From an uncultured Bacteroidales bacterium (GTDB lineage: Bacteria > Bacteroidota > Bacteroidia > Bacteroidales > P3), in NCBI GenBank assembly GCA_900321975.1, contig ONYC01000179.1, positions 1 through 39,592 of the forward strand: a DNA stretch of 39,592 nt, in the 5' to 3' direction. Position 1 is the stretch's first letter. Each line of letters starts with the position of its first letter. The position numbers were made by a program, and so were the translations under genes. Positions 12,874 through 36,036 of the stretch are shown in pieces. The notes beneath the pieces are model-generated. The model did no database searches. It was not told the DNA's origin and was given only the letters and a program-made list of their open reading frames with translations.

Positions 12874-13708
12874 CTGGGCCGTATGGCTGCTGATTGCGGC
12901 CATAGCGGTGATATTGCTTCTCTACCTGCGCCTTGTGCGTAAAAACCGGCGTCTGCGCCAGTTGGCCGACGAGGCCAACCGCCTGCGCAAAGAGGCCACC
13001 GAGGAACAGCGCCGCAACCGCCAGCTCAAGCAGGAGATGACTTCGAACATAGCCCACGAGCTCAAGACCCCCGTGAGCTCTATCCGGGGTTACCTCGAGA
13101 TACTTCTCGGCAACCACGCCATCGACGAGGAGCGCCGCCGTCACTACCTCGAACGCTCCTACCGGCAGACCCTCCGCCTGTCGGATCTCATTCAGGACGT
13201 GTCGCTTATCAACAAAGCCGAAGAGAGCGCTGCCCTCTTCCCGAAAGAAAATATCGATGTCCACGCGATAGCCCAGGAGGCATTCGACGACCTTGCCGAC
13301 AAAGCAGCAGCAGCCGGCATCACCCTCGGAAACAATCTGCCCGCCGAGATGCCCATCAACGGCAACCGAGAACTTCTCTACGCCATATTCCGCAATCTGG
13401 CCGAAAACGCCGTAGCCTATGCCGGAGAAGGATGCCGCGTGGTTGTCGAAACCTACCGCACGGAGGGCAAGCCGGATACATACTATATCCACCTCTACGA
13501 CACCGGACGCGGAGTGCCCGACGCCGACCTTGCACGCCTGTTCGACCGCTTTGTGCGCATCGATTCGGGCCGCTCGCGACAGAACGGAGGCACCGGCCTC
13601 GGACTTTCCATCGTGAAGCACGCCGTCCTCTTCCACGGCGGCGAGATCTACGCCAAGAATCGGCCCGAAGGCGGCCTGGAATTCTTCTTTGCACTAAATA
13701 TCAAGTAA
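12854..13708 (+). CDS. Sensor histidine kinase (single TM, HisKA + HATPase_c)
   Basis: It has the H-box SNIAHELKTP, N-box NLAENAV, G1 DTGRGV and G2 GGTGLGLSIV. It overlaps the response-regulator gene by 20 nt. Confidence 0.85.
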   Translation: MDMEWSDWAVWLLIAAIAVILLLYLRLVRKNRRLRQLADEANRLRKEATEEQRRNRQLKQEMTSNIAHELKTPVSSIRGYLEILLGNHAIDEERRRHYLERSYRQTLRLSDLIQDVSLINKAEESAALFPKENIDVHAIAQEAFDDLADKAAAAGITLGNNLPAEMPINGNRELLYAIFRNLAENAVAYAGEGCRVVVETYRTEGKPDTYYIHLYDTGRGVPDADLARLFDRFVRIDSGRSRQNGGTGLGLSIVKHAVLFHGGEIYAKNRPEGGLEFFFALNIK

Positions 13709-13740
13709 TTAACACAGACACTCAATCTGTCTGATCCTGC

Positions 13741-13880
13741 CGTTCTTCGATAGTTCTTCGATCGTTCTTCGATTGTTTTTCGATTCGAATCGAAGAACAA
13801 TCGAAGAACGATCGAAGAACTATCGAAGAACGATCGAAGAACGGTGGTAGTTGATAGGTAGAAGATAGGGTGTTGATAGG
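13741..13880. repeat. Composite 11-bp-phased palindromic element, copy 1
   Basis: Positions 13741-13786 pair with 13787-13832: 46 bp with one T.G, centred on TTCGAA. GTTCTTCGA units start at 13742, 13753, 13764 and 13775. TCGAAGAAC units start at 13790, 13801, 13812, 13823 and 13834. GATAGG occurs at 13853, 13864 and 13875. Confidence 0.9.
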
Positions 13881-13985
13881 GTCCGGAAAGGCACTTTTGA
13901 AGAAAATTTTTATTTGCATACAATAAATAAAATCAAACCGAGTTATACTAAATTATAAAGCGAAACCAAAAAAATTATCACTGAT

Positions 13986-14735
13986 ATGAAGAAAATCTTT
14001 GCATTGGCAGCCACAGCGCTGATTTGCATGGGAGGCCTTATGGCCCAGAACACGTTCAAAGGCGTGGTGAAATACAAAGTGGAATCCACCGGCCAGGTGG
14101 CAATGACCATCCCCGAAGAGGCTGCGAAAGCCGAAATCAAGGTGTCGGGCAACGATATGTATACCAAGAGCCCCATCTTCTGCGGCGGCCTCACCGAGTG
14201 TGTTCTCATCCAGAACCTTACCCAGACTTCGTGTATGAACTACGGCCCCTATCTGAGCTATTTCCGCTCGCAGGACTTCGAGTTCACCTATCAGGGCGAC
14301 GGCAAACTGCTGCTCAAGCACACATATGAAGCCAGCGACTTCGACAGTGTGGACATCGTCGACACCGAAGCAGGCCACTTCTACTACGAGTATGTCGCCG
14401 GCGAGACCAAGGAGATTGCCGGCATGACGGCCAAAAAACTGATCCGCCACGCATACGACGACGACGGTGTGGACCACCCGATGGAAATGTGGTACAGCGA
14501 TGAAATCGGCCCGAAGATCAACATCCTTTTCAGCGGCATCAAAGGCATGCCCCTTGAGTGCACCATGGATGCCGGCGAAGGCAAGGCCATCACCTACACC
14601 GCCATCGAGATCGTCAAAGGCAAAGTGAAAGAAGCCGACTTCCTGCTGCCCGACGGCTACCAGGTGCTCAGCGAAGAGGAGCTCGACACCCTCGGGGAGG
14701 AGCTCAAAGAGGCATTCGAGCTGATGCAAGAATAG
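13986..14735 (+). CDS. Exported hypothetical protein
   Basis: It has the signal peptide MKKIFALAATALICMGGLMAQ, coding-like composition and an acidic C-terminus. I recognise no family with certainty. Confidence 0.7.
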   Translation: MKKIFALAATALICMGGLMAQNTFKGVVKYKVESTGQVAMTIPEEAAKAEIKVSGNDMYTKSPIFCGGLTECVLIQNLTQTSCMNYGPYLSYFRSQDFEFTYQGDGKLLLKHTYEASDFDSVDIVDTEAGHFYYEYVAGETKEIAGMTAKKLIRHAYDDDGVDHPMEMWYSDEIGPKINILFSGIKGMPLECTMDAGEGKAITYTAIEIVKGKVKEADFLLPDGYQVLSEEELDTLGEELKEAFELMQE

Positions 14736-32631: not shown

Positions 32632-32692
32632 AACAACCGATTTAGTTAGTTTACAATATTTTTACCAATCCGACCGACTCGGATTTGAAATG

Positions 32693-32700
32693 CAAATATA
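32693..32700 (-). promoter_or_regulatory. Bacteroidota -7 promoter box TATATTTG for the decarboxylase gene
   Basis: The reverse complement of CAAATATA is an exact TAnnTTTG match about 62 nt upstream of the ATG at 32631. Confidence 0.5.
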
Positions 32701-32897
32701 CAACTAAAACGATTAAATTACAAAAAAGTTTCAAAAATCACACACAAATATACAAAAACAATTCCGCCGGTGCCGAATGCGGACGTTGGTTTCATTTATT
32801 TTCAAGCGCCGCCGGTTCACGATTATCAACATTCGAAAAAACAAATAAGCCCGCTTCAAAAAGAAGACAAATACCTGTTTTTAACATCTCACCGCCT

Positions 32898-33039
32898 ATC
32901 GTTTTTCGATACATCTTCGATCGTTCTTCGATCGTTCTTCGATTCGAATCGAAGAACGATCGAAGAACAATCGAAGAACAATCGAAGAACGATCGAAGAA
33001 CGGTGGTAGTTGATAGGTAGAGGATAGGTAGTTGATACG
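32898..33039. repeat. Composite 11-bp-phased palindromic element, copy 2
   Basis: The TTCGAA centre is at 32943-32948. Positions 32898-32945 pair with 32946-32993, with the inner 23 bp perfect and the outer part carrying 4 mismatches plus 1 T.G. TCGAAGAAC starts at 32949, 32960, 32971, 32982 and 32993. GATAGG is at 33012 and 33023, and GATACG at 33034. Orientation and the 19-nt offset to the tail match copy 1. Confidence 0.9.
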
Positions 33040-33306
33040 TAGAATCAGGCAGTTGCGAAACCGCCAAAAACGTCGTTATTGCCCTCAAATGTCAAATAAT
33101 AGTTAAATTCTAACCCGGAATGTTAAAATTCCATCAACGCACAATCATTCCGAGTATCAAGACGGAAACGGACGGCTCCGCCAGAAACTGCACCTGCACA
33201 AACCACCAAGACCATTTTTTTGCCGGATGCTTAGAAGCACATATGTTATAAATCGAGAAGGTTTGTCGCACAATAAAATGGGAATTGCAGCGTTATTGCA
33301 TTTGTT

Positions 33307-34611: not shown

Positions 34612-34693
34612 GCGGATATGGCGTAATTGGTAGCCGCGCAAGACTTAGGATCTTGTTCCGAGAGGAGTGGGGGTTCGAGCCCCCCTATCCGCA
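34612..34693 (+). tRNA. tRNA-Leu, anticodon UAG (type II, long variable arm)
   Basis: The acceptor stem is GCGGATA/TATCCGC. The anticodon stem is CAAGA/TCTTG with loop CTTAGGA. The variable arm is TTCCGAGAGGAGTG and the T-arm is GGGGG-TTCGAGC-CCCCC, with discriminator A. No CCA is encoded. The 3' end is +/-1 nt because I could not settle the C-run length by eye. Confidence 0.9.
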
Positions 34694-34701
34694 CAGATAA
34701 A

Positions 34702-36036
34702 ATGAAAAGCAAGAAGCTGATAACAGGAAGATTGGGCAATCCCGACGGCCTCCGCTACACCAGGCGGAGCGTCCTTCTTGTTCTCCATTTTTCACTTTTT
34801 ATTTTTTTATACGCGCAGGCGCAGGCGACATATATCGTTATCCCGATGGACGAAGTGCAGCAGAACCACCTGAAAGCCTACGGCGTGGCCTACTGGGCGC
34901 TGGAGCGCGAGGCCGAGGTCACGTGGCTGCTCAACTACCGGGGCGGCTCGTTCATGACCAAATATGCCGAAGGGCTGGAGCGCGAATGCAGACTGCGCGG
35001 CGTTACATGCGAGGTGATTGCCGACGGGCAGAGTTCGGCCATACTCAGCCATATCGCCGACCCGGCTGTGAACATGGACGCCGTGAGGCTGCAGAAAGCC
35101 CCGAAGATAGCGGTCTATTCGCCAAAGAACAAACTGCCGTGGGACGACGCCGTCACACTGGTGCTCACCTACGCCGAGATACCCTACGACGTGGTGTACG
35201 ACGAAGAGGTTATGGCCGGAGTGCTCCCCACCTACGACTGGCTGCACCTGCACCACGAAGACTTCACCGGCCAGTTCGGCAAATTCTGGGCAAACTACCG
35301 CAGCCAGCAATGGTATATCGAGGATGTTCGCCAGCAGGAGGCTATGGCTGCCAAGCTGGGCTTCAGCAAGGTGAGCCTTCTGAAGCTGGCCGTTGCCAAG
35401 AAAATACGCGACTTTGTGAGCGGCGGCGGATTCCTCTTCGCTATGTGCTCGGCTCCCGACAGCTACGACGTGGCCCTTGCCGCCGAAGGGGTGGACATCT
35501 GCGCCGAGATGTTCGACGGCGACCCCATGCAGCCCAATGCACAGGAGGCTTTGGACTTCAACCGCTGCTTCGCTTTCAAAGACTTCCGCATCAGCACGAA
35601 TCCCAGCGAATACGAAATATCGACCATCGACATCGACGACCGCAGCCGGACAAGGCTGGTGAACGAGAAGACCGACTTCTTCGTGCTCTTCGACTTCTCG
35701 GCCAAATGGGACTGGATACCCACCATGCTCACACAGAACCACAGCCGCGTGGTGCATGGTTTCATGGGGCAGACGACCGCCTTCCGCCGCGAGACGGTGA
35801 AAAGCGGATGCGTGATCCTGGCCGAGAACAAAGAGCTGGGCGAGGTGCGCTACCTTCATGGCGAATATGGCAAAGGGACCTGGACATTCCTCGGCGGGCA
35901 CGACCCCGAAGACTACCGCCACTTCGTAGGCGATCCGCCCACCGACCTTTCGCTCTATCCCAATTCGCCCGGATACCGGCTCATCCTCAACAACATACTT
36001 TTCCCAGCAGCAAAGAAAGAAAAACATAAAACCTGA
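34702..36036 (+). CDS. Exported hypothetical protein, possibly class-I glutamine-amidotransferase-like/ThuA-like fold
   Basis: The signal peptide is RRSVLLVLHFSLFIFLYAQAQA. GGGFLFAMCSAP is reminiscent of a nucleophile-elbow Cys. The start is the first ATG after the tRNA, since the ORF-track start at 34627 lies inside the tRNA. The function is uncertain. Confidence 0.7.
   Translation: MKSKKLITGRLGNPDGLRYTRRSVLLVLHFSLFIFLYAQAQATYIVIPMDEVQQNHLKAYGVAYWALEREAEVTWLLNYRGGSFMTKYAEGLERECRLRGVTCEVIADGQSSAILSHIADPAVNMDAVRLQKAPKIAVYSPKNKLPWDDAVTLVLTYAEIPYDVVYDEEVMAGVLPTYDWLHLHHEDFTGQFGKFWANYRSQQWYIEDVRQQEAMAAKLGFSKVSLLKLAVAKKIRDFVSGGGFLFAMCSAPDSYDVALAAEGVDICAEMFDGDPMQPNAQEALDFNRCFAFKDFRISTNPSEYEISTIDIDDRSRTRLVNEKTDFFVLFDFSAKWDWIPTMLTQNHSRVVHGFMGQTTAFRRETVKSGCVILAENKELGEVRYLHGEYGKGTWTFLGGHDPEDYRHFVGDPPTDLSLYPNSPGYRLILNNILFPAAKKEKHKT

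Follow-up and report, generated by a model that had tools for sequence, protein, structure and literature searches.

The window (the whole stretch of 39,592 nucleotides that was analysed) carries the gene order amidohydrolase, response regulator, histidine kinase, a gene encoding a protein of 249 amino acid residues, and FtsK, and a repeat element, referred to below as copy 1, lies within this group. The histidine-kinase ORF ends at 13708, which is where the original prediction had placed its stop, and the next gene, that of the 249-residue protein, starts at 13986. Copy 1 lies 33 nt past the kinase stop codon and separates this codon from the block of conserved sequence upstream of the next gene. 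The features of the locus are as follows, the outer limits of the element being taken from a comparison of the filled site with the empty sites of three relatives (L114, L127 and L128):

13715 to 13733, + strand: stem-loop CAGACA-N7-TGTCTG with a stem of 6 bp, in the stretch that separates the kinase stop from the element
13741 to 13898, + strand: copy 1, the whole inserted element (filled versus empty comparison)
about 13734 to 13742 (left) and between 13882 and 13898 (right), + strand: the ends of copy 1 (filled versus empty comparison)
13742 to 13785, + strand: head arm, four 11-bp units GTTCTTCGATn, the fourth being GTTTTTCGATT, which gives a T.G wobble
13784 to 13789, no strand assigned: palindromic centre TTCGAA, the tip of the hairpin
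13790 to 13842, + strand: tail-side arm, five perfect TCGAAGAAC units, the fifth unpaired
13843 to 13881, + strand: tail, GGTGG and then the three units of the second type, 11 bp each (TAGTTGATAGG / TAGAAGATAGG / GTGTTGATAGG)
13882 to 13898, + strand: possible terminal segment (TCCGGAAAGGCACTTTTG), whose membership in the element is uncertain
13899 to 13985, + strand: the 249-aa gene's own upstream region (GAAGAAAATTTTT ... ACAATAAATAAA ... GAGTTATACTAAA)

Direct reading of copy 1 placed GTTCTTCGA units at 13742, 13753 and 13764, a fourth head-arm unit with one T for C (GTTTTTCGA) at 13775, the palindrome centre TTCGAA at 13784-13789, TCGAAGAAC units at 13790, 13801, 13812, 13823 and 13834, and GATAGG at 13853, 13864 and 13875. 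The positions given for units, centre and GATAGG motifs in the original prediction were thus correct to the base, and the 11-bp register, the inverted arrays, the unpaired extra unit on the right and the second type of unit in the tail were likewise borne out. It had also been stated that the GATAGG units keep the same 11-bp phase; this holds in the sense that no spacer breaks the period, and the phrase carries no further information. Three abutting period-11 arrays were reported by Tandem Repeats Finder, at 13742-13785 (4.0 copies), 13789-13843 (5.0 copies, 93%) and 13846-13880 (3.2 copies). A repeat search returned the palindrome arms 13741-13786 and 13787-13832, each of 46 nt, lying 0 nt apart and 98% complementary, in agreement with the arms and the single T.G pair previously found by hand. 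The 9-mer TCGAAGAAC occurred 19 times in the window, as compared with 0.25 expected, and none of 100 shuffles reached this count; 15 of the 19 occurrences fell in copy 1 and in a second copy (copy 2) described below.

The stem of copy 1 comprises 46 bp per arm (92 nt) in a whole element of about 158 bp. The predicted folding energies of the hairpin as RNA were -75.7 and -70.7 kcal/mol for the two strands (z about -12), and that of the hairpin as DNA was -51.1 kcal/mol. Negatively supercoiled DNA has a helical repeat near this 11-bp period; relative to the 10.5-bp repeat of relaxed B-DNA, the period gives an excess of about 17 degrees per unit. Given this excess, the units would face the same side over three or four repeats only, unless the DNA is underwound.

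When the window was compared with the three relatives that share its gene order, the spacer between the kinase and the next gene was found to be 277 bp in the window, where the element is present, and 98 bp in L114 and 143 bp in L127 and L128, where it is absent. The downstream protein of these relatives is 85-86% identical to that of the window. Sequence common to all of them runs from GAAGAAAATTTTT (window 13899) through ACAATAAATAAA to the start codon, so that the extra DNA of the window corresponds to about 13741-13898. The right end first assigned to the element, at 13880, does not stand: because the sequence shared with the element-free relatives resumes only at about 13899, the element extends further and its right end lies between 13882 and 13898. 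The segment 13882-13898 weakly resembles the ...GAATCAGGCAGTTGCGA end of copy 2, and the similarity between the two copies stops at about 13900. The upstream block 13899-13985 is kept in the relatives without the element and is outside it; the stem-loop at 13715-13733 is missing in these relatives.

Judged from these comparisons of sequence, copy 1 is an insertion, since three relatives with the same gene order do not have it. A relative at 92% identity also has no element upstream of the 249-aa gene, and there the upstream neighbour is a different one. No convincing target-site duplication was found at copy 1, where the empty sites are too diverged (85-86% protein identity) to place the ends at the level of the base, and no sharp terminal inverted repeat could be defined in this element, which is a nested palindrome. 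The window belongs to an uncultured Bacteroidales of the rumen; the element at the copy 1 locus was identical in seven independent assemblies, and three further contigs break off inside the hairpin.

Copy 2 lies in the same window and in the same orientation as copy 1:

32898 to 33060, + strand: copy 2, about 91% identical to copy 1 over the core
32901 to 32942, + strand: degenerate head arm
32943 to 32948: centre TTCGAA
32949 to 33001, + strand: tail-side arm, five perfect units
33002 to 33039, + strand: tail, GGTGG and three units, then TAGAATCAG

The flanks of copy 2 are unrelated to those of copy 1. It sits between the two genes of a divergent pair, a PLP-dependent decarboxylase (- strand) and msrA (+ strand), and no two-component system was found near it. 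Its orthologue in a sister strain (L119/L120), with flanks about 97% identical, has six tail-side units instead of five and differs by several substitutions, clustered in the arrays; between copy 2 of the window and L119, a C-G pair is replaced by T-A in one case. No empty site was found for copy 2, given that the sister strain carries the element and that the next relative (L122) differs in gene order. Compensatory change between the arms was considered as a general rule and rejected: the variable spacer base of the units is complementary between the arms in copy 1, as had been predicted, but several C/G spacers of copy 2 mismatch, and those of other copies often do so.

The original prediction had proposed a pattern search for further copies, and this search was productive. 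A genome scan with two adjacent units as the query, covering one genome per species, gave at least 81 loci. Among the matches listed, 55 loci belonged to Bacteroidales bacterium RGIG5008, a MAG from roe-deer rumen, and at least 57 copies with distinct flanks were found in this MAG, in 434.6 kb on 17 contigs. Further copies were present, among the matches listed, in about ten other ruminant Bacteroidales or Prevotella MAGs (sheep, red-deer, yak, goat, cattle and other). The hairpin-tail junction of the window's own subtype was found at 19 further loci in one metagenome assembly, all of them with different flanks. In the sequence examined, the density was about one copy per 10-40 kb. Four matches outside Bacteroidota (Chitinophagaceae, Cohnella, Limisphaerales and Chloroflexia) were direct-only arrays of a similar 11-mer with no inverted arm, and on this sequence pattern they were treated as chance microsatellites. 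A scan of viral contigs with two units gave one match, which had two units only, lay inside an apparent coding sequence and was rejected as not being the element; BLAST searches against phages and plasmids gave no match.

Comparison of the copies revealed a modular build. A copy in RGIG5008 consists of a short flank ending in CCGTCT and four GTTCTTCGATT units on the left, a 5-nt A+T-rich loop followed by four AATCGAAGAAC units in the middle, and a one-sided tail of about 95 nt with the arrangement AGACGGTGTTGAYATTGCCTTGATGC-(8)-GCTGGTTTTCAG-(4)-ATACAA-(about 17)-TAA-(5)-CTGTAAATCAG. In the window subtype (19 metagenome loci), the hairpin is centred on TTCGAA and comprises between one and four units in the head arm and between one and six in the tail-side arm; L098 has one unit pair only. 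The tail of this subtype consists of GGTGG and two to five TAG[TA][TA]GATAGG units, often ending in ...GAATCAG, and an incomplete mirror image of the tail (CCGTATCAACACCGGCC) is often present in the left flank. In other MAGs the GTTCTTCGATn hairpin is retained, with 11-bp tail units that differ, for example CTTGCCAAACC. In RGIG5008, a second family was observed, with a hairpin made of AGTAGGAGTTG units, which are close to the tail unit of the window, and with the same distal motif block as the first family. These differing tail units, together with the shared distal block, indicate that the parts behave as modules. Most copies are one-tailed; tail units or the distal block were mirrored on both sides in L104, L109 and L056. 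No conserved RNA fold was detected in the tail (RNAalifold, -2.8 kcal/mol), and covariation of a CTG-N5-CAG mini-stem was no better than in shuffles, which indicates that the tail is conserved as sequence motifs.

The spread of the family bears directly on two functions suggested in the original prediction, a site for an OmpR/PhoB-type regulator and a centromere like parC. Tandem 11-bp direct repeats do adjoin a response regulator and kinase pair and ftsK in the window, as would be expected of a local cis-regulatory array for the adjacent response regulator or of a parC-like partition site. However, the relatives keep the response regulator and the kinase without the element, copy 2 is found without a two-component system, and dozens of copies lie next to unrelated genes, the neighbours being ordinary housekeeping genes. 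The setting is chromosomal with no par genes, and the unit is near-identical in all copies, unlike regulon sites. In view of the dispersed copies, the absence of the element from relatives that keep both regulatory genes and the context of copy 2, both suggestions fail, and the probability left to them is negligible. Copy 1 does not serve the adjacent genes as a regulatory site. A composite transposon was also considered, in L006, and was rejected; the genes between its two copies are aroB, a U32 peptidase gene and smpB.

Genomic placement was analysed with genes called on the fetched loci by a simple codon-usage caller of our own, which is crude but gave the same genes in the window as the public annotation. 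Coding sequence makes up 89% of the RGIG5008 DNA examined, yet every copy there with usable context reads as intergenic. For eight copies an apparent overlap with a called ORF was recorded; in seven cases the overlap falls in the stretch by which a longest-ORF call is extended on its 5' side, and in the remaining case (L023) it falls at the 3' end of a weak ORF. These overlaps are read as gene-caller artefacts. Spacer types were counted for the 41 oriented RGIG5008 copies, among the matches listed, that had a called gene on both sides. Divergent spacers held 14 copies (32% of intergenic length), tandem spacers 23 (54%) and convergent spacers 4 (14%), in proportion to intergenic length. In the tandem spacers, the two orientations were represented 13 and 10 times, and in RGIG5008 no association of element orientation with GC skew or gene strand was found. 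Gene 5' ends were present on the tail side in 27 of the 41 copies and on the head side in 24, as compared with about 59% expected. According to this distribution, the element is tolerated anywhere between genes, and the pattern is unlike that of terminators or REPs. It had been foreseen in the original prediction that many copies without positional preference would make the element a generic structural repeat, and this is the situation in RGIG5008, which points to a REP-like or MITE-like class.

The same counts weigh on the idea that the hairpin of about 92 nt acts in RNA, by terminating transcripts of the kinase operon, by stabilising their 3' ends or by serving as a target of RNase III. Its predicted stability is very high on either strand, and the position of copy 1 shortly (33 nt) after the stop codon would suit such a role; an RNA hairpin or a cruciform, both raised previously, is physically possible. 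The distribution does not point there, however, given that one third of the RGIG5008 copies occupy divergent spacers, in which transcript ends are not expected, that no enrichment at gene 3' ends was found in RGIG5008, and that copy 2 lies between divergently transcribed genes. Neither strand has a T-run after the stem, which together with the lack of 3'-end enrichment sets the element apart from intrinsic terminators, and a terminator scan gave a spurious internal site only. Mismatches of the head arm are inherited and uncompensated. At the gathering thresholds of Rfam, tRNA-Leu was the only match in the window, and at permissive E-values the element matched only generic miRNA-precursor hairpins, on both strands and below threshold. 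A function as an RNA element is therefore regarded as highly improbable.

A different lean was observed in the window subtype, in which 26 of 32 flanking gene ends were 5' ends (a small sample with crude gene calls). A 5' end was presented by 16 of the 17 tail-side genes, all four fully resolved tandem cases had the head towards a 3' end and the tail towards a 5' end, and seven of the 11 fully resolved copies were in divergent spacers. At no fewer than six loci (L095, L097, L098, L099, L105 and L108), TTTG...TAnnTTTG, the canonical Bacteroidetes promoter, was found 40-70 nt past the tail. These observations hint at a preference for positions upstream of promoters, and they are a lead rather than a result, because the numbers are small and the larger RGIG5008 family has no such bias. 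As a promoter-upstream module, the element, placed tail first, would insulate promoters from read-through by means of its hairpin or would offer phased activator sites. The orientation counts, the promoters past the tail and the fact that copy 1 abuts the conserved block upstream of the next gene are all consistent with such a module. On the other hand, RGIG5008 lacks the bias on either side of the element, the sample is small and its gene calls are crude, the upstream block of the downstream gene is kept in relatives without the element, and no promoter consensus was seen by eye within the element, so that this explanation is considered very unlikely.

To compare the two arms, all copies were oriented by their tails. 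The tail-side arm is the well-conserved arm in the family. In RGIG5008, mismatches to the consensus per 43 nt amounted to 0.79 in the tail-side arm and 3.06 in the head arm (p = 3e-5), and in the window subtype 42 perfect units were counted on the tail side versus 28 in the head arm (p = 0.001); copies within one genome are related rather than independent, and both p-values are thus optimistic. Exact matches to the consensus were found for the tail-side arm in 39 of 48 RGIG5008 copies and for the head arm in 9 of 48. Head-arm variants such as GATGTCCGATT recur in many copies and are inherited without compensation on the other arm, and linked variants define subfamilies, the GATGTCCGATT variant being linked to NNAAA loops. 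Recurrent head-arm variants that are linked to loops indicate that the family grew by copying from a small number of sources. The near-invariant tail-side arm and the uncompensated head variants indicate that the sequence of the tail-side direct array is preserved, and not the pairing as such.

Conservation of this kind could also be expected of a host architectural element, in which phased 11-mers would serve as a platform for a nucleoid-associated or topology protein, acting at the level of DNA and independently of the direction of transcription; such an element may first have spread as a mobile one. Precedents are the enterobacterial REP and BIME elements, to which gyrase, IHF and Pol I bind. 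Genomes that differ in GC content and in tail units share an unchanged GTTCTTCGAT unit, it is the sequence of the tail-side array and not its pairing that is conserved, and the period of 11 is strict in both unit types and near the helical repeat of negatively supercoiled DNA. The second RGIG5008 family, with another 11-mer and the same distal block, and the independence of position from orientation and intergenic type fit this idea as well. Nevertheless, copy 1 is missing in close relatives and is thus dispensable at its locus, the unit number and the head arm vary freely, and a subfamily structure is the outcome expected of amplification from master copies. An architectural role is on balance unlikely.

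Comparison with known systems places the element among dispersed repeats, and does not assign it to a described family. The plasmid R1 parC has two blocks of five 11-bp iterons, and the pMV158 dso has three 11-bp direct repeats bound by RepB. Abutting tandem 11-bp units in blocks of four or five are a common feature of these sites and the element, but the plasmid sites are single-copy direct repeats beside par or rep genes, whereas here dozens of chromosomal inverted arrays were found. The element is not of the CRISPR type, as its arrays are inverted and no spacers separate their units. Palindromic repeats of the dispersed kind have, to our knowledge, been studied extensively in Proteobacteria, pneumococci and Neisseria, and very little in Bacteroidales.

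REPs are high-copy extragenic palindromes, GTAG- or CGTC-tagged, most of which lie downstream of a gene, in spacers whose genes are convergent or co-directional (PMC3733652). The element resembles REPs and BIMEs in being high-copy, extragenic, palindromic and lineage-specific, in having several sequence types per genome, and in its possible DNA or RNA hairpins. GTAG just 3' of the window-subtype hairpin (GGTGGTAG) and CGTC just 5' of the hairpin in RGIG5008 (CCGTCT) recall the REP tags, a likeness of four bases that may be due to chance. A REP, however, is a single imperfect palindrome of 20-40 bp, while the hairpin here is about 90-100 nt with four or five 11-mers per arm and is followed by a tail of 40-95 nt. 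The placement downstream of genes that is typical of REPs was not found for the RGIG5008 copies, and the RAYT (Y1 transposase) gene with which REPs are associated was not seen in the 434.6 kb around them.

Bacterial MITEs include Correia, ERIC/IRU, RUP, Nezha and others (reviewed in PMC10969869). With these the element shares a length of about 150-200 bp, its non-coding, multi-copy and intergenic nature, the folding back of the whole element, a presence that differs between relatives, subfamilies, and assemblies that break at the copies. No target-site duplication, defined terminal inverted repeats or related IS was found in the loci examined. Unlike MITEs, the element has a body composed throughout of inverted arrays of short tandem units, and it is asymmetric in that it bears a single long tail. 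Closest to it in kind among described repeats, and the only comparable Bacteroidales case found, is BrickBuilt of Porphyromonas gingivalis, which has 23-nt direct repeats (1 to 22.8 units) in 19 copies, all intergenic (PMC4596501). BrickBuilt has a leader and a tail of up to about 300 nt, occurs in one species only and showed promoter activity when tested (PMC4596501). Both are modular and intergenic Bacteroidales repeats that contain leader or tail parts and, internally, a tandem array whose unit number varies, but 23-nt direct repeats contrast with inverted 11-mer arrays, and there is no sequence relation between them.

Literature searches with unit dimers gave no match, and searches of the REP, MITE and Bacteroidales literature returned only general papers and BrickBuilt. 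A 2024 census of 81,380 anonymous Bacteroidota MITEs may include the family unnamed. The original prediction had recognised no described REP, BIME, MITE or CRISPR class in the element, and this assessment holds, with no match in Rfam, the literature or BLAST. The family is apparently undescribed, a dispersed intergenic palindromic repeat that is unusual in its modular build from 11-mers throughout and in its conserved tail-side array.

Copy 1 is thus probably one copy of a lineage-restricted, non-coding, non-autonomous family, REP-like or MITE-like, whose copies have become dispersed between the genes of rumen Bacteroidales. In such copies, inverted arrays of 11-bp GTTCTTCGATn units form the hairpin, an array of the second 11-bp type (nAGTTGATAGG-like) lies on one side of it and, in some lineages, a distal block of about 50 nt of conserved motifs comes after this second array. 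The copies may derive from a few master copies through a trans-acting DNA-binding enzyme that reads the tail-side 11-mers, a protein suggested by the asymmetry of the arms. No transposase-like or recurrent ORFs were found near copies in the 434.6 kb around the at least 57 RGIG5008 copies; MAGs tend to lose genes such as autonomous partners. Slipped-strand mispairing, by which the arrays would gain and lose units, is the simplest account of the changes in unit number. Copy 1 would then be a passenger between the kinase stop codon and the promoter of the next gene, and a stable hairpin in a read-through transcript would be a by-product and not the reason for the element's existence.

Two observations run against this reading. 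The unit and the tail-side arm are near-invariant in sequence across base compositions, which could mean host selection for a binding site instead of selfish spread. The 5'-end lean of the window subtype and the promoters past its tail hint at a preference for sites upstream of promoters, which is not predicted by a purely neutral model. A possible, if doubtful, reading is that the 11-mers are true iterons, namely a recognition code for a dedicated putative protein (a transposase, an HUH-type nuclease or a chromosome organiser). We would propose only tentatively that the family represents a new 'iteron-built' class, in which unit types A (GTTCTTCGATn) and B (nAGTTGATAGG-like) and the distal block are swapped as modules. 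In the same reading, and with similarly low confidence, the tail-side direct array might be the functional core and the inverted arm its fold-back copy.

The family breaks short-read assemblies, creates spurious ORFs across intergenic DNA and can be mistaken for a local regulatory site, and its subfamilies, together with the variation in unit number, could serve as strain markers in rumen metagenomes. If a unit-reading protein exists, the family would amount to a natural modular DNA-recognition system, and it could point to the enzyme that mobilises such repeats, a question that CGTC-type REPs and many MITEs raise as well.

A small stem-loop, CAGACA-N7-TGTCTG (window 13715-13733), was found directly 3' of the kinase stop codon. 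It was not present in the element-free relatives (L114, L127 and L128, in which the gene order is that of the window and copy 1 is missing), and it may either belong to the insertion, as its outer left part, or be what remains of a native terminator. In the species of the window, assemblies are fragmented by the repeat: three independent short-read assemblies (contig starts L087, L088 and L091) stop inside or just past the copy 1 hairpin. ORFs of 65-111 aa were found running through copies 1 and 2:

window 13648-13923, minus strand, ORF through copy 1
window 13722-13919, minus strand, ORF through copy 1
window 32685-33020, plus strand, ORF through copy 2

These ORFs are artefacts, open only because the units are free of stop codons in some frames; similar artefact ORFs stretch gene calls into the elements of RGIG5008, the copy-rich roe-deer rumen MAG. 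A tRNA-Leu gene (anticodon TAG; window 34612-34694) is overlapped by the mechanical ORF 34627-36036, and the true start of the downstream gene must therefore lie further right, as it likewise does in the public gene calls of the sister strain (L119/L120).

A motif, GC(A/G)CAATAAA(TAAA), often preceded by a T-run, was observed recurrently about 40-100 nt 5' of start codons, both in the window (13918-13931 and 33268-33278) and at many RGIG5008 loci (e.g., L030, L036, L080, L027 and L069). It is conserved across species upstream of the 249-aa gene. These genomes also carry the canonical Bacteroidetes -7 box, TAnnTTTG, from which the motif differs. The motif could be an alternative promoter or a leader element.

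Alongside the main family, RGIG5008 holds a second dispersed family, with copies at the following loci:

L003:806-860
L024:7482-7533
L037:7040-7094

Its shorter hairpin is built from 11-bp units, AGTAGGAGTTG, close to the tail unit of the window, TAGTTGATAGG, and is followed by the distal motif block common to the main family (CTGATTTRCAG ... ATTACA ... CTGGTTATCAG), which suggests that the modules are interchangeable.

Direct-only arrays (3-6.5 copies, inverted arm absent) of nearly the same 11-mer (AATCGAAGAAC / AATCGAGGAAC) were observed in unrelated phyla and, because of the database size, were provisionally taken as chance microsatellites:

L035:4883-4954, Limisphaerales MAG
L062:4437-4467, Chloroflexia MAG
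L019:63-104, Chitinophagaceae MAG

In other species, different 11-bp tandem arrays occupy the spacer upstream of the orthologous 249-aa gene:

L115:2811-2846 and L116:2811-2846, GAGTCATCAGG x3.3, with an 8-bp stem-loop and GTTTTAAG ahead of it
L117 about 2790-2830 (L117/L118), GGCAATAGAGA x2

These arrays may belong, as additional members, to a superfamily of 11-mer repeats; alternatively, they may mark this spacer as a hot spot.
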